From Bacteroidota bacterium (GTDB lineage Bacteria > Bacteroidota > Bacteroidia > Palsa-965): a stretch of 64,000 bases of DNA. Within the stretch, counting starts at the first letter, position 1; every line of letters begins with the position of its first letter. Below are positions 1 through 54,439 of this stretch, piece by piece. The stretch is taken from assembly GCA_013289095.1 (NCBI GenBank), contig JABDAO010000005.1, positions 303 to 64,302 of the forward strand. The letters are read 5' to 3'. The position numbers were made by a program, and so were the translations under genes. The notes under the pieces were generated by a model. The model searched no databases. It worked only from the letters and a program-made list of their open reading frames with translations, and was not told where the DNA came from.

Positions 1-314
1 AAATGCTGGGCAACAAGGCTTCCATAAGAAATGCCTACGATCTCGGCTTTGGCTATTTTCAGGGAATCGAGCAACCCGAGCACGTCGGAGGCATGACGGT
101 CGAAATCACGCGAGTCGCCAGTCTTGTCGCTCTGGCCCTGGAAGATAAAGTCGCATAAGATGATTTGGTAGTCGGGTGCAAAAGCAGGCACCATCAGCCC
201 CCAGGCGAGTGTTGATTGAGAAAGACCGTTGAGAAAGACAATGGTCTTCCTTGATTTTACAGAACCGTGAATCTCATAGTAGAAATTCAGGTCGTCAGAT
301 GTTTTGTAGTACAT
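1..314 (-). CDS. alpha/beta-fold hydrolase, N-terminal part (gene runs off the left edge of the window)
   Basis: Own minus-strand translation from the ATG at 314-312: MYYKTSDDLNFYYEIHGS..TIVFLNGLSQS..EIVGISYGSLVAQH. It has a GxSxG nucleophile elbow (GISYG). It is absent from the ORF track because there is no stop inside the window. Co-directional with phaB/phaC. Confidence 0.6.
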   Translation of the reverse strand, partial: MYYKTSDDLNFYYEIHGSVKSRKTIVFLNGLSQSTLAWGLMVPAFAPDYQIILCDFIFQGQSDKTGDSRDFDRHASDVLGLLDSLKIAKAEIVGISYGSLVAQH

Positions 315-386
315 AGCAGTGTTGCTTAGTTAAGGTTCGTATAGCCATTACAATACCACGAGCACAAAGCAGGTGAGGGGGAATCG

Positions 387-1151
387 TTAACGCGACATAT
401 AAAGTCCTCCATTCACCGATATATCCGACCCCGTGATATAGCTGGCCGACTCGGAGACCAGGTACCCTATAGCATCGGCAATTTCGGAAGGTTTGCCCAA
501 TCGGCCCATGGGCACCTGTTCGATGATCTTGTTCCGGATATCTTCGCGTATGGCCATGACCATGGAGGTGCCGATATATCCCGGAGAAACGGTATTGACC
601 GTAATCCCTTTTTTTGCTGTTTCGAGGGCGAGTGATTTTGTGAAGCCAACCATTCCGGCTTTTGCCGTTGCATAATTTGTCTGTCCAAACTGTCCTTTCT
701 GTCCGTTGACAGACGAGATACTTACAATCCTTCCCCAACCTTTGGCAATCATCCCTTCGATGACCAGGCGGGAACAAATAAAGACGCTGTTTAAGTTTGT
801 ATTGATGACATCATACCATTGGTCAGGGCTCATTTTATAAAGCGGGGTATCGCGGGTGATGCCTGCATTGTTTATGAGTACCTGGATGGTTCCGATTTCA
901 GCTTCGATTTCGGTAATCATCCGTTGAGCGGATTTAAAATCAGATATATCGCCTTCTATTATTTTCACGTCAATGCCCATTTTTAGTTGGTCTTCTCTCC
1001 ATTTTTTTGCTTCTTCTCTCCATTTCATGGCCTTGTCGAAATCCCTGTAATTGGCAACGAGGGTGAACCCGTCTTTGTATAACCGTTCGCAGATGGCGCT
1101 TCCTATACCACCTGTGCCGCCTGTTACAAGCGCAACTTTGTTGTTTTTCAT
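387..1151 (-). CDS. phaB: acetoacetyl-CoA reductase (SDR family)
   Basis: 254 aa. Rossmann motif TGGTGGIGS and catalytic YATAKAG (YxxxK). The C-terminal region VNTVSPGYI..MGRLGKPSEIA..TGSDISVNGGLYM is typical of PhaB. It lies 19 bp downstream of phaC. Confidence 0.9.
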   Translation of the reverse strand: MKNNKVALVTGGTGGIGSAICERLYKDGFTLVANYRDFDKAMKWREEAKKWREDQLKMGIDVKIIEGDISDFKSAQRMITEIEAEIGTIQVLINNAGITRDTPLYKMSPDQWYDVINTNLNSVFICSRLVIEGMIAKGWGRIVSISSVNGQKGQFGQTNYATAKAGMVGFTKSLALETAKKGITVNTVSPGYIGTSMVMAIREDIRNKIIEQVPMGRLGKPSEIADAIGYLVSESASYITGSDISVNGGLYMSR

Positions 1152-1170
1152 AAATGATTGCTGGTCTTAT

Positions 1171-2979
1171 TTAGAGGGTGCTTTTTTCTTTTACATAGCT
1201 GCCTGGCGCTGATTCCAGAACCGGGTAATCGGCGCTTCCTTCGTGTTTCGGTGCAGGCACCTGTTTGCCATTTTTGGAGTTCATCCATCGGTTCCAATGT
1301 GGCCACCAGCTTCCTTCACCCGGTTTTGCTGTGTTCTTCCACTGGTCAAAACCTTCTCCAAGCGTACCTCCAAAATGATGGTTGTATTTATGTTTTTTGG
1401 AAGGAGCATTGATAGCTCCCATGATATGCCCAGAATCGCCAAGTACAAATTCTACTTCACCTCCCAGGAGTTCGGTTGAGTTAAATGCAGTACGACAGGG
1501 AGCGATATGGTCTTCGACGGTTCCGATGATATAGGATGGAACCTTGATGAGACCCAGATCGATCGGGACATTACAGATACGAAGGGCATTGGGTACACGC
1601 AGCATGTTTTCATACAGCATTTTCCGCAGGTAAAAGGTGTACATTTTACCCGGAAGGTTTGTATTGTCGCAGCTCCAGTAAAGCACATTGAATGGGGGGG
1701 GGGTCTTACCTTTCAGATAGTTATTGACCACATAGGGCCAGACCAGTTCATTTGCACGGATGGCATTGAAGGCTTTTGCCATATCAGAGCCTTTCATGAT
1801 ACCTCCGTCTTTTAAGTCGTTTTCCAGTTGATGTACCAGTGCTTCGTCGATAATAGCGCCCATAGGGCCAATATCCGAAAAATCGAGCATCGTGGCCAGG
1901 AAGGTGGCAGCATTCACACTTTCCTTTTCGCGGTTTGCTTCGAGGAATGTAGGTTTTGGCGAGGCCAGGATTGCAAGTGTTGCTCCAAGCAGGGTTCCAC
2001 CCAGACAGTAACCCAGGGTGTTTACTTTCTTGGCCCCGGTAATGGCTCTGGCCACTTCAATAGATTTGAGGGCGCCCCTGACCACATAATCGTCGAATGA
2101 TACGTGGCCCATGTCTGCTGTTGGGTTTTTCCAGGAAACAATGAAAACGGTATGTCCTTCTCTGACTCCGTACTCAACCAACGAACGGTCGGTATGCAGA
2201 TCAAGGATGTAATATTTATTGATCCATGGAGGGAAAATAACGAGCGGAAATTCCGAAACCTTTTCGGTCAGCGGGGTGTACTGGATGAGTTGGATGAGCT
2301 CATTCTGGTAAACCACAGAACCTTTGGTCTGGGCCAGGTCGCGTCCGATTTCGAAAACATGTTCATCGCTTTGGGTGATGCTTCCTTTTTGAACGTCTTT
2401 CAGAAAATTTTCAACGCCGGCAAGAAGACTTTGCCCGTTTGTTTCTTTGGCCAGTTTTATTGCTTCGGGGTTGGTGAAGAAAAAATTGGCAGGCGAAAGT
2501 GCATCGAGGTATTGCTGGGTTTGAAAGTTTAGTTTTGATTTGGCGTGTACATCCAGATCGATCGAGTTGGTGATCTCCTTGAGCATTTTTGAGATGAGCA
2601 GGTAGTTTTGTTTGATGTAATCAAAGTAGTGCGGAGATTCGCTCCATTCAGCTGCGGTGAACCTCTTGTCGCCAGGTGCTGGGCTGATTACGGGAGTATA
2701 GCTAGCCTCTGGATTTGCCTGACTTTCGAAAATGCGTTTGCTCAGTTCCATCTGTTTTTGAATGTATTCAACAAAAAACTGTTGCCCGCTAACGGCGGTA
2801 TCTGGGTTGGCAGCAACCTTGCCAGCCAAACCGAGGTATGAATTTGTAAATTCGGTAAAAGCCTGGAGTTGGGAAGGCAGGTTTTGCATAAAATTAGCAG
2901 CCAGTTTTTGACCAGCTTTTGCTGCTTCCTGAGCGATGAGGAGGAGTTCCTGTTCTGTATCTTTTTTTTCGTTTTCCAT
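1171..2979 (-). CDS. phaC: class I poly(R)-hydroxyalkanoate synthase
   Basis: 602 aa. Lipase-box-like GYCLGG with the active-site Cys, and a conserved FIVSWKNP block. Size and architecture fit class I PhaC. Confidence 0.9.
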   Translation of the reverse strand: MENEKKDTEQELLLIAQEAAKAGQKLAANFMQNLPSQLQAFTEFTNSYLGLAGKVAANPDTAVSGQQFFVEYIQKQMELSKRIFESQANPEASYTPVISPAPGDKRFTAAEWSESPHYFDYIKQNYLLISKMLKEITNSIDLDVHAKSKLNFQTQQYLDALSPANFFFTNPEAIKLAKETNGQSLLAGVENFLKDVQKGSITQSDEHVFEIGRDLAQTKGSVVYQNELIQLIQYTPLTEKVSEFPLVIFPPWINKYYILDLHTDRSLVEYGVREGHTVFIVSWKNPTADMGHVSFDDYVVRGALKSIEVARAITGAKKVNTLGYCLGGTLLGATLAILASPKPTFLEANREKESVNAATFLATMLDFSDIGPMGAIIDEALVHQLENDLKDGGIMKGSDMAKAFNAIRANELVWPYVVNNYLKGKTPPPFNVLYWSCDNTNLPGKMYTFYLRKMLYENMLRVPNALRICNVPIDLGLIKVPSYIIGTVEDHIAPCRTAFNSTELLGGEVEFVLGDSGHIMGAINAPSKKHKYNHHFGGTLGEGFDQWKNTAKPGEGSWWPHWNRWMNSKNGKQVPAPKHEGSADYPVLESAPGSYVKEKSTL

Positions 2980-3251
2980 TCGGTGTAGGTATTGTTTTTT
3001 CAGTCGTAAAGGTAGGGGTTTTCATGAGTTGAAAGGGCATGATTCCGGTATATCGGTAATAAATCAGGATCCCGTCTATGCGCTGATCAAGAATAAATCT
3101 GTCGCAATAAATACACGGAGGCAAAGTCCTCTGAAGGAGAATGCCTGTTTTTTCTCCATCGATACATTTCCTGACAGATGTAATTCCGCAGAAGCACACA
3201 AGAAATGCGTGAGACAAGATACTGACATCAAGCAGGCTGCATAGGGATGCA

Positions 3252-3309
3252 AGAAACCCCTTCGTGTCTTCATTTCGGGTTGAAATGTAGCCAAGCGAAG
3301 GGGTTTTCT
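3252..3309 (-). terminator. candidate stem-loop downstream of the phasin-like genes
   Basis: The arms gaaaccccttcg (3252-3264) and cgaaggggttttc (3296-3309) can pair. On the minus strand a short T-rich run follows. The loop is long (about 31 nt), so support is weak. Confidence 0.3.
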
Positions 3310-3340
3310 TCAGGGATCAGTAAAAGAGAGGAATCTTGAA

Positions 3341-3946
3341 CTATTTATTGTCAGAATGCTTCCACCATTCAGAAGCCCAGCCTGAAAAGGCCTTCATGCT
3401 GTTCTGCTGAATCTGGTTGTAGTTGTGGAATTGTGACGAAATGGTTTCGGCAATTTTTTTGTTGAAATTCAAAGCAAGGCTCGTGTGTTTGTTATAAGAC
3501 TCGATAATGGCTTGAGTGCTTGTGTTCATTGTGTTGACAGCAGATTCGAAATTTTCCTTCACCAGCTTCAGTACCTTGTCCAGACCTTCGTTGTTGGCGC
3601 TGAATGTAGCCGATTCTTTGATTGCATCAATCAGTTTCGTGTTGTGCTCCAGGTACAGCTTAACTTGCGTATTGTAGCTGTCGAGTACATGATCGATTGT
3701 TTCTTCCGAAAGCTCAATTGATTTACCAAAGGTTTTGTTCATAGCGCTGAAAAGTGATGTGTTTTTATCTGACAACTGGAATTGGTCACGTATTCCATTG
3801 ACCAATACTTTATTTGATTCGAGAGCCTCGTTCAGAAGTCTGGTGTTGAGATGAATAATTTCTTTAACGGCTTCTTTTGATTTAAGGGCTGTGTCACCAA
3901 GAACGGTTTTCATGTTTTCGGTTTTCTCGCTTACATTGTTTTTCAT
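3341..3946 (-). CDS. phasin-like PHA granule-associated protein (hypothetical, helical)
   Basis: 201 aa with no enzymatic motif and an amphipathic-helix-like composition throughout. It sits directly upstream of, and co-directional with, phaC-phaB. The functional call is by context only. Confidence 0.55.
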   Translation of the reverse strand: MKNNVSEKTENMKTVLGDTALKSKEAVKEIIHLNTRLLNEALESNKVLVNGIRDQFQLSDKNTSLFSAMNKTFGKSIELSEETIDHVLDSYNTQVKLYLEHNTKLIDAIKESATFSANNEGLDKVLKLVKENFESAVNTMNTSTQAIIESYNKHTSLALNFNKKIAETISSQFHNYNQIQQNSMKAFSGWASEWWKHSDNK

Positions 3947-4015: not shown

Positions 4016-4795
4016 TTATTTTGACACACTCACTTTTTTAGCGGGCTCGGTTTGTTTTGTTTTTTCGTCTACAGAGACAGCAACAAGCGGAGTTGCTGAA
4101 TTTTTATCGGCAGGAGAGCTGGTTTTGGCTCCTCCATTCGATGTGTCTTGTGCAGCCTGGAAAAGCCCTGACCAAAGTTTAAGATTAGAAGTGATCATGG
4201 AATTAAGTTGACTATCCAATGAACCGAGGAATTCTTTCCCTGTTTTTACGGTTTCGTTCAGATTTTTAAGATACTGTTCAGAAGTGTTTTGCATAGCGGC
4301 CCTCGATGATTCGAGATTGGTTTCCACATCTTTGGCCACTTTCGTCAGCATAGGTGCAAACGCATCCTGTGTGCTGGCAAACTGTGCCGAGAGTGTATCA
4401 ATATATTTCTGGTTCATGGTGCTGATCGACTCAGCCTGTTTGATATAAGTTTGTACGATTGCATTTATTTTTTCTTCGCAGAATGCAGGGTATGCGTTCC
4501 TGTTCCCGAACTGTTGAATAGTTTCGAAAGAGGATTTGGAAATCTGTGAAAGGCTTTCGAGGCTTTTTTGCATGATTTCATTGAGTATCTCAGAAATGCG
4601 AACCGGGCTTATCATTGCACCTGGTTTTATGTTCATGGTATTGTCAAGTGCGTTGTTATAGAGTTTGGTTGCAAAATCAAGCTGGTTTTCGTAAGCTTTG
4701 GCAACCGAAGACGCAGTGTCCTGAAACATTTTGATGGAGTTTTCTACGTGTTTCTGGAAACTGTTTTCCATGGGATTTTGTTTTTCAGCGCTCAT
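4016..4795 (-). CDS. phasin-like protein with Lys/Ala/Ser/Pro-rich C-terminal tail
   Basis: 259 aa. A helical body is followed by the tail GGAKTSSPADKNSATPLVAVSVDEKTKQTEPAKKVSVSK. It is the first gene of the phasin-phasin-phaC-phaB string. The functional call is by context only. Confidence 0.55.
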   Translation of the reverse strand: MSAEKQNPMENSFQKHVENSIKMFQDTASSVAKAYENQLDFATKLYNNALDNTMNIKPGAMISPVRISEILNEIMQKSLESLSQISKSSFETIQQFGNRNAYPAFCEEKINAIVQTYIKQAESISTMNQKYIDTLSAQFASTQDAFAPMLTKVAKDVETNLESSRAAMQNTSEQYLKNLNETVKTGKEFLGSLDSQLNSMITSNLKLWSGLFQAAQDTSNGGAKTSSPADKNSATPLVAVSVDEKTKQTEPAKKVSVSK

Positions 4796-5418
4796 CGTAT
4801 TTAGTGTTTTATTAGGTTAAATTGTGAAGATCAGAATTTGTCTTGAACGTATAAAAAAAGACCTTTGTCGATTGTTTCCTGGAGTTCATTGCCTGGAATG
4901 TATGTTAATCGTTGGTTATTTGTTAATTATCAGATGAACTTCTGAACTGTTTACAAATGTATGGATATGTAGTATAGGTTCAGAACATTGTTGATAACTT
5001 TTTTATCTCCTTGATTGACTTTTTCGTTTTATAATAGTAATTGTCGCCAAAGTTAACTCGTAATAAATTGATAATCATGCTAAAGCTAGCTTTGAAATTA
5101 GCTTGTCATTGTTTCAATGACATAGAAAATTTTTTTTCAGCTCAGAGGTAAAAACAAATTTCTTGAATTTTCTAAAAGCGCAGCATTCAGTTTTTATTGA
5201 AATTTTAAAAATAAAATGATAAATAATGATATTGAAATAAGATAACACTAGATCCATCTCCAATCTCATTCAAGTCTTTCCTCTATTCTGAATGCAAAAA
5301 TAGGACTTGCGATCAGCCGGCTCACAAAAATTCGTTGAACAGGGGCAATTTGTCGGTGGGAACCAGGAAAGTTAAGGGTAAGGATAATTCTGAATCGGTT
5401 ACCGGCTGGAACCGAGCG

Positions 5419-13362: not shown

Positions 13363-13501
13363 TGGCTTGTGCGCTAATGCACAGTGTGTTAGGGTTTGCG
13401 CAGTCCCGATAGTCATCGGGATGGGTTATCCCGCGGGTTCGTTGTGCTGCTGGCCTTTTGAGCGCGAATGCCTGCTTCGAATGTATTCATATGCGGGATA
13501 A
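13363..13501. repeat. dispersed palindromic element, copy A (long form)
   Basis: tggcttgtgcgctaatgc...cccgatagtcatcggg...TTATCCCGC-[57 nt]-GCGGGATAA. By my hand alignment it differs from copy B (20881-21058) at about 8 positions over about 104 nt. The outer 9-bp arms are perfectly complementary. Confidence 0.8.
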
Positions 13502-13837
13502 AACAGGTTACTGCCCGGAAAATGACTTTGACCCAAGGTCTTTCGTGCAAAAAAGACAGTAGAATACGTCTGCCCTGACTTCCCGGATGTTGGCAAGAAG
13601 GCATCCGAAAAAATGAAAGGCAGGCATCCGGCTCAAAAAGGGATTTCAATAGTCAATGTCAAAAGCCGGGGGGGAGAGATCGAATGACTGCTGCATGTTG
13701 GTCCAGCCAGAGACACGTTTGCCTGAGGTGTCTGTTTCTCCTGATGAATGTTCAGGTACTGACAAATCATGTTCAGTAGTGCTTCATGTGTCTTCCTTGT
13801 TTCCGAACCCCGATCAGTTCATTTACGTTTACGAATG

Positions 13838-14095
13838 AAGCATAATGGATCATTATGCATGCATTTCAAACCAGTATACATGCAAAAAGGATCATTATGC
13901 ATGCATTTCAAACCAGTATACATGCAAAAAGGATCATTATGCATGCATTTCAATCCATTATTCAAGAATAAAGGATCATTATGCATGCATTTTAAATCAG
14001 TATGCAAGCATTTCAATCTATTATTCAAGGATAATGGATCATTATACATGTATTTCAAGTCATTTTGCATGCATAATGGGTGGAAATGATCCAAA
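13838..14095. repeat. tandem array 1 (21/42-bp period, about 12 x 21 bp)
   Basis: The first two 42-mers (13847-13888 and 13889-13930) are identical: ggatcattatgcatgcatttcaaaccagtatacatgcaaaaa. The gcatttca motif recurs at 13868, 13910, 13952, 13994, 14015 and 14057, i.e. in steps of 21 or 42. Confidence 0.9.
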
Positions 14096-18934: not shown

Positions 18935-19200
18935 ATCCGAAGAGGGTTAATGTTAAAAAGCGATGCAAGTAATAAATAAATAATGAGTTTTCAAAAATAG
19001 TACTTTTTTCACTACATCTTCAAAAACTTTCGCGAATGTAGGCAATTTATCCCGCATTATGCATCAGGGAGAGCCCTCGGCTCCGGGGGAGGCCTATTCG
19101 CTTCAATACAGCAGGAAGTTTGGATGATCAGCCTCGCCGATGCGACTCTTCGTCTATTTCGGGTGAAGGTGTGGGAGATTAAGAATATCTTTGAGCCACT

Positions 19201-20880: not shown

Positions 20881-21058
20881 TGGCTTGTGCGCTAATGCCC
20901 GTCAAGACCGGCTCAACCAGGTCTTCTGTCGGCCGGGCGGGCACCGTGTGTTAGGATTTGCGCGGCCCCCGATAGTCACCGGGATGGGTTATCCCGCGGG
21001 TTCGTTGTGCTGCTGGCCCTTTGAGCGCGAATGCCTGCTTCTAATGCATGCGGGTTTA
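20881..21058. repeat. dispersed palindromic element, copy B (long form with a 44-nt internal insertion and a degenerate right arm)
   Basis: It has the same tggcttgtgcgctaatgc start and the same TTATCCCGCgggttcgttgtgctgctggcc..gagcgcgaatgcctgcttc core as copy A. There is extra ccgtcaagaccggctcaaccaggtcttctgtcggccgggcgggc after position 18. The right arm has decayed to gcgggttta. Confidence 0.8.
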
Positions 21059-33209: not shown

Positions 33210-33535
33210 TTGTTGAAATGGCTTGGATTGAAAATAATGCACGTTTTGTCAAAATGATCCCTTAATTCATGCAAAATGAGTTGAATTGAATCTATACTGG
33301 ATTGAAACGTGTTGATATTGGATGGAAATGTATTCATTCTGATTCTTTATGCATGCAAAATGAGTTAAAATGAATGCATCTTGAACTGAAATGAATGCAT
33401 AATGGATTGAAATGTATGCATAATGGATTGAAACTACCAGATAAAGGTTTGAAATGAATTGATATTGGATTGAAATCAATTCAAACTGGATTGAAATGAA
33501 TAAAAAATGATTTAAAATGAAGATAATGGGATTTT
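33210..33535. repeat. tandem array 3 (21-bp period, about 13-15 units), homologous to array 1 but in reverse orientation
   Basis: The motif (t)tgaaa(t/c) ends at 33266, 33287, 33308, 33329, 33350, 33371, 33392, 33413, 33434, 33455, 33476, 33497 and 33518, exactly 21 bp apart. Units such as gcataatggattgaaatg are the reverse complement of catttcaatccattat in array 1. Confidence 0.9.
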
Positions 33536-33713: not shown

Positions 33714-33816
33714 GTGCGTTTGGATTTTGTGCGCTGGATTTGGGTTATCCCGCTGCTCCTGAGAGCTGGCGGCCTTTTCAGAGCGTTAGCCAGCTTCAAC
33801 TGAAAAATGCGGGATA
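33714..33816. repeat. dispersed palindromic element, copy C (short left part, intact hairpin)
   Basis: gtgcgtttggattttgtgcgctggatttggg-TTATCCCGC-tgctcctgagAGCTGGCggccttttcagagcgttaGCCAGCTtcaactgaaaaat-GCGGGATAA. The inner 7-bp stem is perfect here, whereas copy A has a T-T mismatch at the same place. Confidence 0.75.
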
Positions 33817-33847
33817 AAGTCGTAAATTAGCCGCCTAAACCCCCTTT

Positions 33848-49003: not shown

Positions 49004-50008
49004 ATGATCATTCAACTCGATCCAGGAGCAACGAGCGCTCAAAAAGAAAAGATTCAAGAGGTGTTGACTTCCATTGGCTACAAGCCAACAGCGGTGCAGA
49101 CCCAACGTGCTTCGTACCTGGTCTGTATCGGAAAAAACGAATTCGATATACGCCGTCTGGGAACCCTGCCTGGTGTGGCCGATGTTCACCGGGTATCCGA
49201 AAGTTACAAACTTGTATCCCGCAAGTGGAAGGTGGGAGAATCGGGCATAGATCTGGGAGACGGGGTGATGATCGGAGCCGGGTCTTTTTCGCTCATGGCC
49301 GGCCCCTGTAGTATCGAGAGCGAAGAACAGGTGAGGAGTGTGGCCAAACACCTGGCCTCACAAAACATCTTCATCATGCGCGGAGGCGTATTCAAACCCC
49401 GGAGTTCACCCTATGCATTTCGGGGAATGGGCATGGAGGGGTTGAAAATGTTCAGTTCCATCTGCCGCGAATATAAAATCAAGATCATTACCGAAGTCAT
49501 GCAGGTGAGCCAGATTGCACCGATGTATGAATATGTGGATGTGTTCCAGGTTGGGGCACGCAATTCGCAAAACTTCAACCTACTCGATGAACTGGGCAGG
49601 GTTGATAAGCCAGTACTCATAAAAAGGGGCATGAGCGGCACCATAGACGAGTTGTTGCAGAGCGCAGAATATGTTTTTTCGGCCGGTAACGAACGACTGA
49701 TGCTTTGCGAACGGGGAATACGCAGTTACGAAACAGCCTACCGTAACACGTTTGATATAAACGCCATTGCCATCTTAAAAGAAAAAAGCCATCTTCCGGT
49801 TATTGCCGACCCCTCGCATGGCATTGGTTTGCGTGAACATGTACCTGCCATTGCCCTGGCAGCTGCCGCAGCAGGAGCCGATGGGGTAATCTACGAAGTG
49901 CATGAAAAGCCAGAGGAAGCCCTTTCGGATGCGCAACAGACGCTGAACTATGAAGAGTCGGAACAACTGATCCGGAATGTACGGAGGTTGAGGGAAAGTA
50001 TTGGGTAA
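49004..50008 (+). CDS. aroF: 3-deoxy-7-phosphoheptulose (DAHP) synthase, type I-beta with an N-terminal regulatory domain
   Basis: I prefer the ATG at 49004 (MIIQLDPGATSAQKEKI). GPCSIES, KPRSSPYAFRG and IADPSHG blocks are present. The symbol is by function only. Confidence 0.88.
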   Translation: MIIQLDPGATSAQKEKIQEVLTSIGYKPTAVQTQRASYLVCIGKNEFDIRRLGTLPGVADVHRVSESYKLVSRKWKVGESGIDLGDGVMIGAGSFSLMAGPCSIESEEQVRSVAKHLASQNIFIMRGGVFKPRSSPYAFRGMGMEGLKMFSSICREYKIKIITEVMQVSQIAPMYEYVDVFQVGARNSQNFNLLDELGRVDKPVLIKRGMSGTIDELLQSAEYVFSAGNERLMLCERGIRSYETAYRNTFDINAIAILKEKSHLPVIADPSHGIGLREHVPAIALAAAAAGADGVIYEVHEKPEEALSDAQQTLNYEESEQLIRNVRRLRESIG

Positions 50009-50207
50009 GAGCAGGCTCCCCGCGACTCACCCCCCGGCCCCCTCTCTGCAAGCAGAGAGGGGGAGCCTTTGTGCTGAATTATTCAAATGAATTCAAATGA
50101 ATTCATTTGAATAAAACTCCCATCGTTTTGTCTGGATTTTTTTCTCCTCCTCTCTCGCAGAGAGCCCTTTTGTTTGTAATGTGTAAGTTTAAATAAAAAC
50201 GTATGCT

Positions 50208-50669
50208 ATGAAAACGACACAACTTAAGGACTTTACTGGAGAGAATATCTATGTAGGGTTCGATGTTCACAAATCAAGCTGGAAAGTGACTATAGGGCAT
50301 CTCTAATAACCCCTTCCAAACATTCCCTCTTCTTGGGAGAGGGTCAGGGAGAGGTCAAGAAAACGGGGTTATTAGAGATGCCCTATATTAACAGACCATG
50401 CATCTCACAAGAATTATGCACAGGAACCCTCTGTTGAAAAGCTAGTCAACTATTTACAAACTAATTTTGCAGGAGGCACCTATCTTAGCGCTTAGGGGGC
50501 AGGTTTCTGTGGATTCTGGATACACCGGGAATTAAGCAAAAATGGTGTTAATTCGATTATAGTTAGCCCCGCTGATATTCCAACAACACAAAAGGAACAA
50601 GTGAAAAAGGAAGACAAGCGAGACAGCAATAAAATTGCGAAGGCACTTCGCAACGGCGACCTCAAGGGC
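50208..50669 (+). pseudogene. IS110-family (DEDD) transposase, decayed N-terminal remnant
   Basis: MKTTQLKDFTGENIYVGFDVHKSSWKVTI | 97-bp insertion | LTDHASHKNY..GGTYLSA*GAGFCGFWIHREL..IVSPADIPTTQKEQVKKEDKRDSNKIAKALRNGDLKGIY. There is an in-frame stop, and the reading frame ends exactly at the left arm of element copy D. The C-terminal two-thirds of the protein is absent. Confidence 0.75.
50291..50387. mobile_element. 97-bp MITE-like palindromic insertion inside the IS110 transposase remnant
   Basis: Perfect 23-bp terminal inverted repeats, tatagggcatctctaataacccc and ggggttattagagatgccctata, flank 51 bp with an internal ccctct..agaggg hairpin. It splits the conserved KVTI|L region of the transposase. 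Confidence 0.65.
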
Positions 50670-50745
50670 ATTTATCCCGCATTATTCATTCGGAATTGGC
50701 CTTTTGTGCGCGAATGCCTGCTTCTACTGCATAATGCGGGATTAG
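50670..50745. repeat. dispersed palindromic element, copy D (hairpin core only)
   Basis: tTTATCCCGCATTATtcattcggaattggccttttgtgcgcgaatgcctgcttctactgcATAATGCGGGATtag. The arms extend to 12-13 bp, and the inner ggccttttg.gcgcgaatgcctgcttc block is shared with copies A and B. Confidence 0.8.
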
Positions 50746-50929
50746 CCTGTTACACGGCTAATGCAAAATTCCGGTTTATTGGGCCAATGCCTTTTCATGT
50801 AACTGGAGACATTTCCGAACGGTATCGATATAAATGGCACAAATTGTCCTGCCGGAGAAGTTAGTTGTCCTGAAAGAGACCTTTGTTGTTCGGAGGTGCT
50901 GCCTTTAAAAGGCAGCTCATTCCCTGGGG

Positions 50930-51500
50930 TTCCCGACTGTTCCCTTAGTTTCCCGACACGTTCCCCAAGCTTCCCGACATGTTCCCCAAGCTTCCCGACA
51001 CGTTTACTAAGGTTCCCGACACGTTCCCCAAGCTTCCCGACATGTTCCCCAAGCTTCCCGACACGTTTACTAAGCTTCCCGACATGTTCCCCAAGCTTCC
51101 CGACATGTTCCCTTAGGTTCCCGACATGTTTGCTAAGCTTCCCGACATGTTCCCTTAGATTCCCGACATGTTTGCTAAGCTTCCCGACACGTTTACTAAG
51201 CTTCCCGACATGTTTGCTAAGCTTCCCGACACGTTTACTAAGCTTCCCGACATGTTCCCTTAGTTTCCCGACATGTTTGCTAAGCTTCCCGACATGTTTG
51301 CTAAGCTTCCCGACACGTTTACTAAGCTTCCCGACATGTTCCCTTAGATTCCCGACACGTTCCCTTAGGTTCCCGACATGTTCCCTAAGGTTCCCGACAC
51401 GTTCCCTTAGGTTCCCGACATGTTCCCTAAGGTTCCCGACACGTTCCCCAAGGTTCCCGACATGTTCCCCAGGGTTCCCGACACGTTCCCCGAGGTTCCT
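50930..51500. repeat. tandem array 4 (about 27 x 21 bp, unit TTCCCGACAYGTTNNNNWAGN)
   Basis: tcccgac starts at 50951, 50972 ... 51434, 51455, 51476, i.e. in exact 21-bp steps. There are four main unit variants (..cacgttccccaagc, ..catgttcccttagg, ..catgtttgctaagc, ..cacgtttactaagc). The first unit is 20 bp. Confidence 0.92.
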
Positions 51501-52131
51501 TATCGAGAGTCTGTTCAATAAAAGGATTTGGAGATGCTATTGAAAGCATTTTCCCGGAGAAGTTTGTTGTCCTGGCGGAGAAGATAGATGTCCTCCCGGA
51601 GGAGACCATGGTTGTCCTGCGTTTCTGCTGTTCATTTTGGGATTATATGCACTAATTCTTTTCCCCCGCTTTATCACCCCATACTCCCAAACTGATATTG
51701 GCCATATTATGGGGATAGTAATTCCAGATTCTTTAGTCCACCTTAGCAACATCAAAGAAAAAAAGAACGCATGATAGAGGGCTTTAAAAAGAGTCAGTCA
51801 CTCCAATCATACCCGTTTACAGGCATGCCACAGCCTTATTTGTTGAATACGTTTCGATTAATTTAGCTTTCATTTTTTTTAATTCCTACTAGGATTTGAT
51901 ATTTTTTGTGTTTATCTTGTCATCAGAAAAGACAAATACCTGGGCTTAAGTCTAAGCATACCCGTTCTACAGGCATACAATCCGTTCGTCCCCGTTTTCT
52001 TTTTTAAACAGTGTTTTTGTAGCATGGCGTACATTCTCTCTGTGATTGCGCACACCTCACAGACCGGAATGAAGTAGCGTACCCAATCCTTCAACTGTTT
52101 TACACACATTAACACACAAAACCAAAACCAC

Positions 52132-53658
52132 ATGAAAAATTCACTACGCCTAGTTGTGCTTTCGCTCGCGCTCAGCGGAAGTATGTTTGGTCAGTCATTT
52201 GTCAGGGTCACGGCAAGCCAGCTGAACCAACAGGTTACGCTTCATGCCAATGAGGCCCTCGAAGTGAGGCTTCCTTCAAAACCGTCTTCCGGCTATGGCT
52301 GGTACATGCGCAATTCTGCCGATCAGAAACGGATGCAACAGGGCGTTTTGAAACAAGCCGGTCCCTATGAATTTGTAAGCGATATCCCGGCTGCACCCAT
52401 TGGGGCTCCCGGAACGCAAATCATTAAGTTTACTGCACTCGGAAGGGGTACTACCACCCTCGACCTTGTTTATATGCGCCCCTGGGAAGGAATCAATACG
52501 GCCACTGATTTCTTTTCGGCGCAGATTGTTTCTGAAGGCAGCTATACCGGTGCACCTTTTTCGACCATGCCGGCGACTCCTGTTAAACAACAGAACAAAG
52601 CAACCCGCACTACCTTGCCTGCTACCTACAGCTGGCTGACGCTGGGCGATTGCACTCCTTGTAAAGATCAGGGCCAGTGCGGTTGCTGTTGGGCCTTTGC
52701 TTCGGTTGGGTCTATGGAATGTGATGTAAAAATATGGGACAACAACGTACGCAGCTTTTCCGAACAGTGGCTCATCAATTGCGATCTGACTTGCAGCGGC
52801 TGTAACGGAGGCTGGTGCCCCGACAGTATGTTCACCATCTTTGGTGGCGTGTATGAAGCCGATCTGCCTTTCAATGCTGCTTCGGGCACTTCAACCGGAA
52901 CTTGTGCTTCCTCCTATACTTATCATGAAAAACCTGTTGGCTACCAACAAATCGCTGTCAACCCAACCGATGCACAAATCAAACAAGCCATTTACGACTA
53001 CGGCCCAGTCTGGGCTGGTGTAGATGCTGGTAATAATTTCCAGGCTTATACCGGTGGTGTGATGAATGCCACAGATGGAACCTCTATTGACCATGCAATC
53101 GTACTTGTTGGCTGGGACGATACACAAAGCTGCTGGATCCTGCGTAACTCCTGGGGTACGTCGTGGGGGATTGATAATGGGTATATGATGATAGGTTATG
53201 GAGTATCGGGTGTTGGAAACAGCGCCACGTATTTTGAATACAAGAGCGGGATCATCAACCACAATGTTCCTCCGGTTGCTGATTTTGCAGTCAATACACC
53301 AAGCACCTGTGGCGGGGCCGTTCAGTTTACCGATAACTCCATCAACAGCCCTACTTCCTGGGCCTGGAATTTTGGGGATGGAAATTCTTCTGTAGCTCAA
53401 AACCCTTCGCACACCTATACCGCATCCGGCACCTATACCGTAACCCTGGTTGCCACAAACAGCTTTGGAAACAATACCGCTGTAAAAAAACAATTTTGTT
53501 ACCGTTACTATTCTGCCGGCCCCTGTTACTACAGGTGCTACCCGTGTCGGAACAGGTGTTGTAAATCTGGCTGCTTCGGTTGCCTCGGGTGCAGCATCGA
53601 TCGACTGGTACAGCGCCCCTACCGGTGGAACACCGTTGCAGACAGGAACTACGTATGA
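52132..53658 (+). CDS. secreted papain-family (C1) cysteine peptidase with an N-terminal chagasin-like (I42) domain and a PKD domain; the reading frame is broken near 53484-53490
   Basis: Signal peptide MKNSLRLVVLSLALSGSMFGQ. The three I42 motifs occur in order: LPSKPSSGYGW, IGAPGTQ, YMRPW. C1 catalytic residues are QGQCGCCWAF (Cys), DHAIVLVGWD (His) and NSWGTSWG (Asn). The PKD region is FGDGNSSVAQNPSHTYTASGTYTVTL. The last 55 aa (CYRYYSAGPCYYRCYPC..) look out of frame. Confidence 0.85.
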   Translation: MKNSLRLVVLSLALSGSMFGQSFVRVTASQLNQQVTLHANEALEVRLPSKPSSGYGWYMRNSADQKRMQQGVLKQAGPYEFVSDIPAAPIGAPGTQIIKFTALGRGTTTLDLVYMRPWEGINTATDFFSAQIVSEGSYTGAPFSTMPATPVKQQNKATRTTLPATYSWLTLGDCTPCKDQGQCGCCWAFASVGSMECDVKIWDNNVRSFSEQWLINCDLTCSGCNGGWCPDSMFTIFGGVYEADLPFNAASGTSTGTCASSYTYHEKPVGYQQIAVNPTDAQIKQAIYDYGPVWAGVDAGNNFQAYTGGVMNATDGTSIDHAIVLVGWDDTQSCWILRNSWGTSWGIDNGYMMIGYGVSGVGNSATYFEYKSGIINHNVPPVADFAVNTPSTCGGAVQFTDNSINSPTSWAWNFGDGNSSVAQNPSHTYTASGTYTVTLVATNSFGNNTAVKKQFCYRYYSAGPCYYRCYPCRNRCCKSGCFGCLGCSIDRLVQRPYRWNTVADRNYV

Positions 53659-54439
53659 TCCTACCATCAGCGCTACGACTACCTATTATGTAACCAACGA
53701 AACCACTTCAACCATATCGCCGCTTGGTCTTGCAACTACCGGAACCGGAGGGTATTTTACAGCAAATGCTTCACACAGGCTCTACTTCAATGTCGTGAAC
53801 CCTGTTCAGATCAATTCGGTTGATGTGTATGCTGCCACAGCCGGTGTGCGCGAAATTGTTGTGGTAAACAATGCCGGTACGGCTATCGACTCGGCAAGCT
53901 TCACCGCGGTTGTGGGTGTCAATACCGTTCCGCTTGGTTTTGTTCTGCCTGCTGATACCATGTATGCCATGAAGATGGGCGATGCAAGTACTGTTGATGT
54001 ATACCGTAACAGCGCAGGGGCAGCCTATCCGTACACGGTCAGCAACCTGGTAAGTCTTACCGGCTCGGATGCCGGCGTTTCCCCCGACGTTTACTACTAC
54101 TTCTTCTACAACTGGAAGGCTCAGACACCTGTTTGTGCCAGCGTCCGCGTACCGGTAACAGGAACGGTAACTTCACCAACAGGGATCGCTACCCTCTCGG
54201 AAGCTGCCGGTCTGAAATGTTTCCCGAACCCAAGCAATGGTATGTTTACAATAGAAGGCCTCAACAACGAAAATACAGTTGAAGTTTTTGATGTGATCGG
54301 AAAACTTGTTTTCCAAACTACGACTCAGAACCCTACATGTATCATCGATGTACGTGAAAACGGAAAAGGAATGTACCAGGTCAGGGTGACCGATAAAACC
54401 ACCAAGACGGTTTCGGTAGGAAGAGTGGTTGTTGAATAG
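53636..54439 (+). CDS. C-terminal continuation of the C1 peptidase gene (Ig-like domain, YYFFYNW module, T9SS type-A sorting domain)
   Basis: This frame is open back to about 53490 (..VTVTILPAPVTTGATRVGTGVVNLAASVASGAASIDWYSAPTGGTPLQTGTTYDP..). It ends with the Por-secretion-tail-like sequence CFPNPSNGMFTIEGL...GMYQVRVTD..SVGRVVVE. There is no convincing independent start; the ORF-track start is TTG. Confidence 0.7.
   Translation: MQTGTTYDPTISATTTYYVTNETTSTISPLGLATTGTGGYFTANASHRLYFNVVNPVQINSVDVYAATAGVREIVVVNNAGTAIDSASFTAVVGVNTVPLGFVLPADTMYAMKMGDASTVDVYRNSAGAAYPYTVSNLVSLTGSDAGVSPDVYYYFFYNWKAQTPVCASVRVPVTGTVTSPTGIATLSEAAGLKCFPNPSNGMFTIEGLNNENTVEVFDVIGKLVFQTTTQNPTCIIDVRENGKGMYQVRVTDKTTKTVSVGRVVVE

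Follow-up and report, generated by a model that had tools for sequence, protein, structure and literature searches.

The array described here lies in a 2.1-kb gap of a 64-kb window (the window being the whole stretch of 64,000 nucleotides analysed), with a DAHP synthase gene on one side and a C1 peptidase gene on the other. The neighbouring genes are of housekeeping and T9SS type (trp operon, DAHP synthase, C1 peptidase, proteins with a T9SS tail), and no rep, par or integrase gene was found near the array. Apart from the array, hairpin elements and palindromes are found in the gap, together with a degraded IS110 fragment; the gap also collects mobile-element debris. The following features were assigned:

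50286-50392, no strand: near-perfect palindrome with 28-nt arms, 93% complementary (inverted pair I1)
50391-50670, plus strand: decayed remnant of the N-terminal domain of an IS110-family transposase (translation; PF01548)
50668-50746, plus strand: hairpin element copy D (repeat families D4 and D5, inverted pair I9; copy alignment; fold)
50742-51518, minus strand: 258-aa ORF with TTG start, VGKLSKH-type heptads across the array (ORF list)
50843-50905, plus strand: left paralogue of an old segment with 21-bp period, ~2.5 units plus tail (alignment to the right paralogue)
50852-50872, plus strand: left 21-nt direct repeat CCGGAGAAGTTAGTTGTCCTG, one of only two matches in the window, with none expected by chance
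50896-51543, plus strand: 215-aa ORF with GTG start, reading the array as FPTCSLS (ORF list)
50898-50916, no strand: 19-nt perfect palindrome GCTGCCTTTAAAAGGCAGC between the left paralogue and the array
50917-50929, no strand: degenerate half-unit CATTCCCTGGGG at the left array edge (read from the sequence)
50930-51496, no strand: minisatellite of 27 head-to-tail units (TRF, exact core matches, unit table)
51537-51797, minus strand: frame upstream of the 258-aa ORF, 86 open codons with an ATG at 51752, closed by the TAG at 51537-51539
51552-51630, plus strand: right paralogue of the old segment, made up of three units (21, 21 and 24 bp) and a tail (TRF, alignment)
51554-51574, plus strand: right 21-nt direct repeat CCGGAGAAGTTTGTTGTCCTG, the other of the two matches in the window, with none expected by chance

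The palindrome at 50286-50392 is MITE-like debris. The IS110 fragment matches PF01548 with an E-value of 2.8e-4 and 21 bits (cut-off 29) over profile positions 30-116 of 155, carries an in-frame stop and is truncated where element D starts. Element D, placed 185 bp upstream of the array by the initial annotation, was confirmed at 50668-50746 and ends 185 bp before the first unit. A module of element plus array was considered and rejected: the spacers between elements and arrays are unrelated and have no sequence in common, the orientation is inconsistent, and element B stands without any array. The co-location of element D and the array is probably that of two features in one of few long gaps.

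The synteny of the locus was followed via DAHP synthase homologues. Two relatives with DAHP synthases of 85% and 82% identity have other genes downstream, the closer one (85%) after a gap of merely ~110 bp, and neither the array nor its flanks were matched in the DAHP synthase loci of the two. The 2.1-kb gap lies at a synteny break, and neither gap nor array is conserved in these two relatives.

TRF reported the array at 50930-51490 with a period of 21, 26.8 copies, 86% matches and the consensus TTCCCGACATGTTCCCTAAGC. The units follow the formula TTCCCGACAYGTT-NNNN-WAG-N, and the 13-nt core TTCCCGACAYGTT has 26 exact matches from 50950 to 51487, every step being 21 bp. When up to two mismatches were allowed, 29 core matches were found in the window compared to 3.2 expected; the three outside the array carry two mismatches each. 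The first unit (50930-50949) has 20 bp since one base is missing, and the remaining 26 have 21 bp, so that the ~27 copies at 21-bp spacing described before for 50930-51500 are verified. Instead of the four unit variants named there, 13 distinct 21-mers were counted, with five tail classes (CCCCAAG, TACTAAG, TGCTAAG, CCCTTAG and CCCTAAG). Repeats with unique spacers, as in CRISPR, were not found: the spacing equals the unit length, hence there are no spacers and the array is not a CRISPR.

The order of the units is non-random, as had been noticed, with a similarity above that of shuffled arrays at lag 2 (p = 0.002) and at lag 3 (p = 0.047). Higher-order blocks of 42 and 63 bp are present, exact duplicates of 62 bp at offset 63 and of 68 bp at offset 84 were detected, and the end units on both sides are more diverged. 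This higher-order structure (lag-2 similarity, duplicates at offsets of 63 and 84 bp, diverged edges) is typical of growth by local duplication. Each unit consists of two ~10.5-bp halves, TTCCCGACAYG and TTCCCYWAGS, both headed by TTCCC. At the left array edge, TRF detected a period-10 signal at 50929-50986, and the half-unit CATTCCCTGGGG (~50917) is similar to the second half of units, ATGTTCCCCAGGG.

The copy number of 27 rests on one assembly that spans the locus; no second assembly crosses the array, and a short-k assembly made independently for this strain is broken on both sides of the region (short-read Logan contigs end at ~50047 and resume at 51591). An artefact in copy number or unit order is nevertheless very unlikely. 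The longest exact repeat inside the array is 68 bp, and reads or k-mers above this length can order the units, for which reason collapse or inflation is not expected; together with the 13 unit variants, this gives a unique path at ordinary read lengths. In addition, the array flanks are identical to the independent contigs as far as the break points.

The two 21-nt direct repeats that had been described around the array were recovered at 50852-50872 and 51554-51574; they are 20/21 identical, bracket the array and occur nowhere else in the window. They belong to larger segments, 50843-50905 and 51554-51630, which are paralogues of ~76-80% identity (blastn: 76% over 62 nt, E=7e-7), the left one corresponding to the right one less one unit. 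The degenerate units noted on the right side are borne out as a small array at 51552-51605 with period 21 and 2.6 copies (TRF). The GC hairpin reported at the left junction is the perfect palindrome at 50898-50916, written gctgcctttaaaaggcagc; no T-run follows it on either strand, and it is absent from the terminator-like list. As a description, the initial view of an array lying within an older array of the same period therefore holds, with an "older array" of just 2-3 units per side. Its second part, that the array expanded or inserted within the older one, was not borne out as a statement on common origin or insertion. When old and new units were compared in every rotation and on both strands, at best 13/21 positions agreed, a value reached by 14% of shuffles; the direct repeats are 702 bp apart (33x21+9) and hence out of a shared 21-bp register; and terminal inverted repeats were not found around the array.

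Such a bracketed segment raises the possibility of a mobile element, for which a precedent exists in the same phylum. BrickBuilt of Porphyromonas gingivalis is a minisatellite/MITE with 23-nt units in up to 22.8 copies (Klein et al. 2015, PMC4596501). It is species-restricted, always intergenic, and expands and contracts between strains; ~19 copies per genome share a conserved leader and tail and IS5-type inverted ends, and promoter activity was shown (PMC4596501). Like BrickBuilt, the array is found in Bacteroidota and consists of imperfect units that follow one another without spacers, measure about two helical turns (21 vs. 23 nt) and have conserved and variable halves, in 27 vs. up to 22.8 copies. 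Both are intergenic and break short-read assemblies, and the array may likewise be species-restricted; on BrickBuilt, gene callers at times predict ORFs that lack support. In contrast to BrickBuilt, one copy of the array was seen in the 64-kb window, it has no inverted ends, its flanks are direct paralogues, and its unit is unlike that of BrickBuilt (AGAYCATARTATCCTCTCRTRTG) in sequence. BrickBuilt is the closest known case, short of a demonstrated membership of the array in this family.

The array might accordingly be read as the core of a BrickBuilt-type non-autonomous element, i.e. a MITE carrying a minisatellite, with the 21-nt direct repeats marking an insertion or a linked duplication. 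A 681-bp segment is bracketed by the clean 20/21 direct repeat, mobile-element debris lies alongside, and GAGACCTTTGTT at 50876 (3 nt inward of the left direct repeat) agrees in 10/12 positions with the BrickBuilt/IS5 end GAGACCTTTGCA. On the other side, GAGACCATGG at 51607 is similar to the ISPg1 end GAGACCATTGCA (Table 2, PMC4596501). However, matches to the end sequence in the window are at chance level (46 vs. 60 expected at up to three mismatches, three of them at up to two), both candidate ends have the same orientation without an inverted partner, and the homology of the flanks runs beyond the supposed end. BrickBuilt-style inverted ends flanking the array were consequently rejected, the one-sided 10/12 match at 50876 being what chance provides in the window. 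Target duplications of 21 bp are atypical for IS5-type elements, neither the array unit nor its flanks were found again elsewhere in the 64-kb window, and the unit searches in metagenomes and viral contigs given below likewise speak against mobility. This reading is therefore considered unlikely.

The long ORFs reported across the array were found on both strands (258 aa with TTG start on the minus strand, 215 aa with GTG start on the plus strand), and all coding tests that were run agree with the earlier decision to call neither of them a gene. Long open frames result from a period that is a multiple of three and from most variants being stop-free in two of six frames. The log-likelihood ratio (LLR) of codon usage per codon was -0.05 for the array in the minus frame, -0.25 for the upstream piece, -0.04 for the tail and -0.49 for the plus ORF, compared to 0.18-0.48 for whole genes of the window and 0.027 for the lowest of 131 gene pieces of 71 codons; the upstream piece lies under all 131 equal-length pieces of real genes. 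The Bacteroidota promoter motif TAnnTTTG, located directly upstream of several real genes in the window, was not found inside the array or just upstream of either ORF; the nearest plus-strand occurrence is at 50462, ~430 bp before the plus ORF. Promoter and terminator scans remained at background level.

None of the six ORFs over or beside the array, with their listed starts, occurs in a collection of 15 billion proteins, in which both flanking genes of the 64,609-bp contig are present with entries from NCBI, IMG and Logan. The public annotation of the contig has no gene call over the array, and identical alternative-start versions of the two long ORFs were not found in the homology searches. 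The protein search with the minus ORF gave two weak coiled-coil matches only; that with the plus ORF gave chance matches only, among them FPTCLLS repeated four times in a satellite-rich 2.2-Mb contig. An exhaustive HMMER search yielded 2,686 matches, all of them generic heptad or low-complexity repeats, and homologues with common non-repeat parts were not found in the protein searches. The coiled-coil Pfam matches of the minus ORF are a composition effect (133 families were matched), and the upstream minus piece and the flanks had no Pfam match. The 215-aa plus ORF is judged spurious and the 258-aa minus ORF is probably not a gene; the open frames over the array are probably by-products of the repeat.

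The minus frame deserves separate consideration, as the array could be a present or recent minus-strand gene for a coiled-coil protein of ~27 heptads, one that originated in the repeat or was enlarged by it. It would either be translated from the TTG at 51518 or be a pseudogene whose ATG at 51752 is cut off by the TAG at 51537-51539. The residues of the frame follow the textbook pattern of a coiled-coil heptad: a and d are hydrophobic (V at a and L at d, both invariant), and b, c, e, f and g are polar or charged. Two polymorphisms, A/T and G/A, are synonymous in it (CTT/CTA and AGC/AGT). This pattern is equally true of the plus frame and not specific to the minus frame, since the third codon positions of both coincide. 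Identical heptads of the ERVGKLG type are known from predicted coiled-coil proteins. Among the (E/D)(R/K)VGKL proteins, the predicted P0002 and P0180 show this heptad too, V and L occupying its core positions; unlike the minus ORF with its un-gene-like codon usage, they possess ATG starts and non-repeat N- and C-terminal parts. The frame is also unusually open on both sides of the array, with 86 codons upstream containing one TAG and 62 codons downstream, which was reached by 0.6% of Markov simulations for a pre-chosen frame; this value overstates the case because the rule of allowing one stop was set after looking. The coiled-coil heptad and the openness of its flanks both run against a reading of the array as a minisatellite.

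Against a gene, the uninterrupted ORF has no ATG or GTG start, the Bacteroidota -7 motif is absent upstream, and in each of the three parts codon usage falls short of any real gene or gene piece tested. The tail passes through both the perfect palindrome and the old repeat before ending just within the right end of element D, the non-repeat parts are without homologues or Pfam matches, and no public gene call covers the array. An ordinary start combined with gene-like codons and non-repeat homologues, as expected of a coiled-coil gene, was thus not found, and a gene or pseudogene is regarded as a rather unlikely minority reading. The array presents itself as non-coding, as minisatellites and VNTRs are, with a residual doubt from the coiled-coil-like frame.

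At the RNA level, Rfam gave no match at the array, and hence no known structured RNA was detected there; only two tRNAs passed the gathering scores in the window, and the weak matches in 50000-52200 are all hairpin noise at 50279-50394. The fold of the array scored z=-0.8 on the minus strand and z=-3.0 on the plus strand, the latter driven by AAGCUU and ACAUGU palindromes, and no convincing periodic structure was seen in the plus-strand fold. A sponge RNA with many GGA motifs was considered and found no support.

As had been proposed, the unit was searched for in other genomes. A loose scan of the genome collection with a pattern of three TCCCGACA cores, each 21 bp from the next, gave more than 108 loci among the matches listed, and many phyla were represented. 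This breadth is mostly an artefact, because any 21-bp tandem repeat with the 8-mer matches, and a wide family of the array was accordingly rejected, the consensus units of the hits being otherwise unrelated. Weak resemblance to the unit was seen, among the matches listed, for L103, L088, L003, L070, L075, L009 and L065. A two-unit pattern had one match in the metagenome collection, an unrelated actinobacterial secreted protein with SPNMSGT repeats, and a similar pattern had none in viral contigs.

The resembling termite-gut arrays (TCCCGACATGTYGGC...) belong to Tannerellaceae (L003, L070, L088, L103), Treponema (L075) and Spirochaetaceae (L009). As in the array, their period is 21 bp, the polymorphism is C/T at CpG positions, the location is intergenic and the open frames are confined to the array; a 12-nt stretch, TCCCGACATGTT, is common to some units. 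The identity is only ~72-76% with 8 of 21 positions forced by the search pattern, which leaves kinship unestablished; without the forced positions, the best agreement is 10/13, an estimated ~0.05 after correction for multiple tests. The termite-gut units contain a perfect 12-bp palindrome, CCGACATGTCGG, which the array unit lacks. A leader or tail shared among the four Tannerellaceae arrays, or with the window, was looked for and not found.

These arrays bear on a further explanation, a functional DNA scaffold whose sites, spaced by two helical turns, would serve a DNA-binding or nucleoid protein, be it iteron- or centromere-like or a regulatory or insulating block between gene clusters. Plasmid iterons and the sopC and parC arrays have units of ~17-22 bp placed ~21-22 bp apart on one helical face. 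The array is comparable to them in unit size, spacing and a partly palindromic core, and its 21-bp spacing would place all sites on one face of the helix. The invariant 9-nt core TTCCCGACA plus GTT includes the palindrome ACATGT, a period of 21 bp is common to all large arrays in the window, and the related-looking termite-gut arrays carry their perfect palindrome in each unit at several loci with flanks not shared. On the other hand, the context is chromosomal and housekeeping, neither a rep or par gene (as an iteron or centromere on a replicon or mobile element would have next to it) nor a regulator gene adjoins, and 27 copies are far above typical iteron sets. Furthermore, the palindrome is degenerate in the array, with half of the units reading ACACGT, similar arrays elsewhere have no common neighbour gene, the similarity to the termite-gut units is as weak as stated, and the array is not kept in relatives. 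A scaffold function is accordingly held to be improbable.

The period of 21 bp itself recurs. In every sizeable tandem array of the window, the period is 21 bp or a multiple of 21 bp (TRF), with the 21-bp period at three loci. In other Bacteroidota genomes, arrays of one 21-bp unit were found at several loci with flanks not shared, such as four loci in a Tannerellaceae MAG; a Flavobacteriaceae MAG has three adjacent arrays. This recurrence hints at a period-specific cause beyond simple slippage, which runs counter to the minisatellite reading. Arrays of unrelated 21-bp units would then be a recurring feature class of long intergenic gaps in Bacteroidota and some other phyla, with a period-specific cause and not as neutral slippage debris, a proposition to which we give little credence. 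Candidate causes may be a phase-dependent DNA-binding or nucleoid protein selecting scaffolds, or an enzyme adding templated repeats; in a variant, 21-bp arrays may serve as a source of de novo coiled-coil ORFs.

Taken together, the array is probably a young non-coding minisatellite of a kind already known in Bacteroidota, and neither a gene nor a new system. Its spacer-less tandem copies with a unit of 10-100 bp are those of a minisatellite or VNTR. Intergenic minisatellites of comparable unit size and copy number are a documented precedent in this phylum, and of 87 21-bp arrays sampled in public genomes, about half show open frames confined to the array, as do nearly all of those from Bacteroidota. 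Bacterial intergenic VNTRs, e.g. MIRU-type typing loci, are defined by copy-number variation between strains. Like the array, they consist of units of 10-100 bp placed head to tail in non-coding DNA, with greater divergence at the edges, and they grow by one or several whole units at a time, as proposed for the array. A proto-repeat of ~10.5 bp (TTCCC plus 5-6 bases) was probably fixed as a 21-bp dimer; slipped-strand mispairing and unequal exchange, mostly adding two or three units per event, would then have amplified this dimer in place to 27 copies. The array would then be expected to vary in copy number between strains, and most likely it is without a dedicated function.

As a hypervariable-looking locus, the array could be used to type strains of this uncultured Bacteroidota lineage. 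It is also a place where short-read assemblies break and where a 258-aa coiled-coil-like ORF tempts annotators. Should the heptad ORF prove to be translated, it would illustrate cleanly how a tandem repeat can give rise to a gene. If the 21-bp phasing were selected across unrelated arrays, this would point to an unrecognised DNA-organising protein or repeat-adding process in Bacteroidota.

Tandem Repeats Finder (TRF) called an array with a period of 21 bp at 50930-51490 (26.8 copies, 86% matches, consensus TTCCCGACATGTTCCCTAAGC), and the 13-nt core TTCCCGACAYGTT occurs in 26 exact copies from 50950 to 51487, always in steps of 21 bp, which confirms the position given in the initial annotation. 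With up to two mismatches, the core was found 29 times in the window compared to 3.2 expected, a number reached by none of the shuffles; three of these matches, with two mismatches each, lie beyond the array. Each 21-bp unit splits into halves of 11 and 10 bp, both headed by TTCCC, and TRF detected a 10-bp period at the left edge of the array, where a degenerate half-unit directly precedes unit 1 (50930), which lost one base and measures 20 bp.

The order of the units is indeed non-random, since their similarity exceeds that of shuffles at distance two (p = 0.002) and three (p = 0.047), but the four variants described previously had to be replaced by 13 distinct 21-mers, which form five classes by their tails. 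A stretch of 62 bp recurs exactly at offset 63 and one of 68 bp at offset 84, and divergence is greatest in the outermost units. Taken together, this is the usual signature of local duplication in blocks of two or three units. The array is probably a young, non-coding minisatellite that was grown in place by slippage or unequal exchange. In this process, a proto-repeat of 10.5 bp would have given rise to the 21-bp unit, from which blocks of 42 and 63 bp would have formed in place by slippage or unequal exchange.

No exact internal repeat exceeds 68 bp, so the array can be ordered with ordinary reads. The copy number as assembled is plausible; the strain's sole other assembly, made independently (Logan, SRR8422484), stops at about 50047 and restarts at 51591.

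The array is located in chromosomal DNA of a Bacteroidota bacterium, within a 2.1-kb gap between a DAHP synthase gene and a C1 peptidase gene. The gap and its surroundings contain the following features, in addition to one copy of an ~80-nt hairpin element:

Upstream of the array, ending at 50008: trp operon, followed by the DAHP synthase gene
50038-50063 and 50079-50114: two short perfect palindromes, just downstream of DAHP synthase
50286-50392: near-perfect palindrome of 107 nt with 28-nt arms (93% complementary), just downstream of DAHP synthase
50391-50670: decayed remnant of the N-terminal domain of an IS110-family transposase, interrupted by an in-frame stop (PF01548, E = 2.8e-4, which misses the curated cut-off)
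50898-50916: palindrome, left of the array
51552-51605: small 21-bp array detected by TRF, right of the main array
Downstream of the array: C1 peptidase containing PKD domains, then proteins bearing type IX secretion tails

The palindromes downstream of DAHP synthase are possibly MITE or terminator debris, and the IS110-type fragment is truncated at '...GDLKGIY', exactly at the start of copy D of the hairpin element. The gap is decaying and strewn with mobile-element debris. Synteny was compared in the two nearest relatives available (DAHP synthase 85% and 82% identical). In the former, DAHP synthase is followed by about 110 bp and a different gene, in the latter by other genes, and neither the array nor its flanks were detected by blastn at these loci. 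The array is thus situated where synteny breaks, in non-coding DNA that changes fast. The C1 peptidase/PKD gene (52132-53658) and the next ORF (53636-54439, type IX sorting tail) overlap out of frame and look like a gene split by a frameshift; the split is identical in the independent Logan contig and is therefore not an error peculiar to one assembly.

The hairpin element occurs in the window as follows:

13418-13502, 20981-21049, 33745-33821 and 50668-50746, plus strand: ~80-nt hairpin element (copies A to D)
19040-19077, plus strand: 5′ arm only

The closing stem is formed by TTATCCCGC...GCGGGATAA, and the interior, GGCCTTTTGAGCGCGAATGCCTGCTTC, is conserved. The 3′ arm is missing from copy B, and a DHH-family gene starts 27 nt after the end of copy C. 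Rfam gave no match, and fold z-scores of -0.4 to -2.2 are unremarkable.

Two frames are open across the array as described before, a minus-strand frame of 258 aa (GKLSKHV, TTG start) and a plus-strand frame of 215 aa (FPTCSLS, GTG start). A minus-strand gene or pseudogene for a heptad coiled coil is unlikely. The reading is attractive nonetheless: its frame places V at position a and L at position d of every heptad, with polar or charged residues elsewhere, and ERVGKLG-type heptads are present in predicted coiled-coil proteins. The frame is also open for 62 codons downstream of the array and, upstream, for 86 codons that include an ATG at 51752 and are broken only by a TAG at 51537-51539; such openness was reached in 0.6% of Markov simulations of the flanks, a value that overstates the case because the rule allowing one stop was chosen post hoc. 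The 133 coiled-coil families matched in Pfam are a composition effect of the heptad pattern. Against a gene, the codon-usage log-likelihood per codon is -0.05 for the array frame, -0.25 for the upstream piece and -0.04 for the tail, compared to 0.18-0.48 for 25 real genes and a minimum of 0.027 for 131 gene pieces of 71 codons. The Bacteroidota -7 motif TAnnTTTG, located just upstream of several real genes in the window, is absent from the array and from the region just upstream of either ORF. The non-repeat parts of the minus frame have no match in Pfam, and no homologue sharing them emerged when 5.8 billion proteins were searched with a word index and 1.8 billion representatives exhaustively with HMMER. 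The tail of the ORF crosses a perfect palindrome and the old repeat flanking the array, and ends at a stop codon a short way within the right end of the hairpin element. Of six ORFs looked up over or beside the array, each with the start codon assigned in the ORF list, none is present in a collection of 15 billion proteins, which contains both flanking genes of the 64,609-bp contig (from NCBI, IMG and Logan), and homology searches revealed no identical alternative-start version of either long ORF. The CTT/CTA and AGC/AGT polymorphisms are synonymous in both frames, whose third codon positions coincide, and therefore single out neither. These results support the initial decision not to call either ORF a gene; both are probably incidental to a repeat whose period is divisible by three.

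The bracketing 21-nt direct repeats at 50852 and 51554 were verified (20 of 21 positions identical, no further copy in the window), as were the 21-bp units to the right and the hairpin at the left junction, both listed above. The flanks 50843-50905 and 51554-51630 are paralogues with about 76-80% identity, the left copy lacking one unit. Nesting of the array in an older one is thus a fair description, but as a history it is undemonstrated, since old and new units agree in 13 of 21 positions at best (p = 0.14) and are out of register.

No Rfam family matches the array, folding of either strand gave no convincing periodic structure, and no inverted repeats flanking the array were found. The absence of rep, par, integrase or regulator genes nearby argues against iterons or a centromere. 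The closest described case found is BrickBuilt of Porphyromonas gingivalis, an intergenic, species-restricted minisatellite in which up to 22.8 copies of a 23-nt unit follow one another without spacers, within a MITE that has a leader, a tail and the IS5-type ends GAGACCTTTGCA (PMC4596501). An intriguing resemblance to such an end, seen a short way inside the left direct repeat (GAGACCTTTGTT, 50876), was rejected: such matches are at chance level within the window, a second look-alike at 51607 has the same orientation with no inverted partner, and the flank-to-flank homology continues past the motifs. Membership of the array in the BrickBuilt family is not shown.

A loose scan of reference genomes gave more than 108 loci among the matches listed, nearly all of them unrelated 21-bp repeats containing the 8-mer by chance, and these do not amount to a wide family of the unit. 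A few arrays resemble the unit with 72-76% identity over about 160 nt, 8 of the 21 positions being forced by the search:

L003, L070, L088 and L103: four loci of the termite-gut Tannerellaceae MAG Cf509_bin38
L075: Treponema
L009, 6154-6993: Spirochaetaceae, 40 units

Their units read TCCCGACA(T/C)GT(C/T)GGC..., many with the perfect 12-bp palindrome CCGACATGTCGG. All are intergenic with open frames confined to the array, no neighbouring gene is common to all, and no flanks are shared; one conserved gene (MNRDVFS...) follows the arrays of both L009 and L075 at a distance of about 115-130 bp. The resemblance to the array is borderline after multiple-test correction, and kinship is therefore not claimed. 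With stricter two-unit patterns, the metagenome collection gave a single match, to an actinobacterial coding repeat that is unrelated, and viral contigs gave none. A 2.2-Mb ENA contig (L116), which came up by chance in a protein search, contains very large satellites unrelated to the array at 16-3811 (24/48-bp unit, 79 copies of the 48-bp period) and 4256-5390 (31-bp unit, 39 copies).

All sizeable tandem arrays in the window, at three separate loci, have a period of 21, 42, 63 or 84. Further arrays with this period are:

13838-14079 and 33261-33529: a pair of 21-bp arrays, older and degenerate, whose units are close to GCATTTCAATCCATTATGCAT and have the palindromic core ATGCAT
L073, 2669-3749: three arrays of 21-bp (or 63-bp) period next to one another, their units diverged, Flavobacteriaceae MAG SJ88

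The first two, 19 kb apart, are inverted relatives (71-78% complementary). Those of L073 occupy the 1.9 kb that separate a 515-aa ORF from a 523-aa ORF, the latter taken for a GMC-type oxidoreductase from its sequence; open frames on both strands are confined to the arrays, and the unit also occurs at two more loci of the same genome (L019, L104). In loci from other Bacteroidota, arrays with differing 21-bp units are clustered or recur without common flanks. Since this sample was preselected for period 21, the recurrence is only a lead. Minisatellites are a kind of repeat already known, and the array is one further case.
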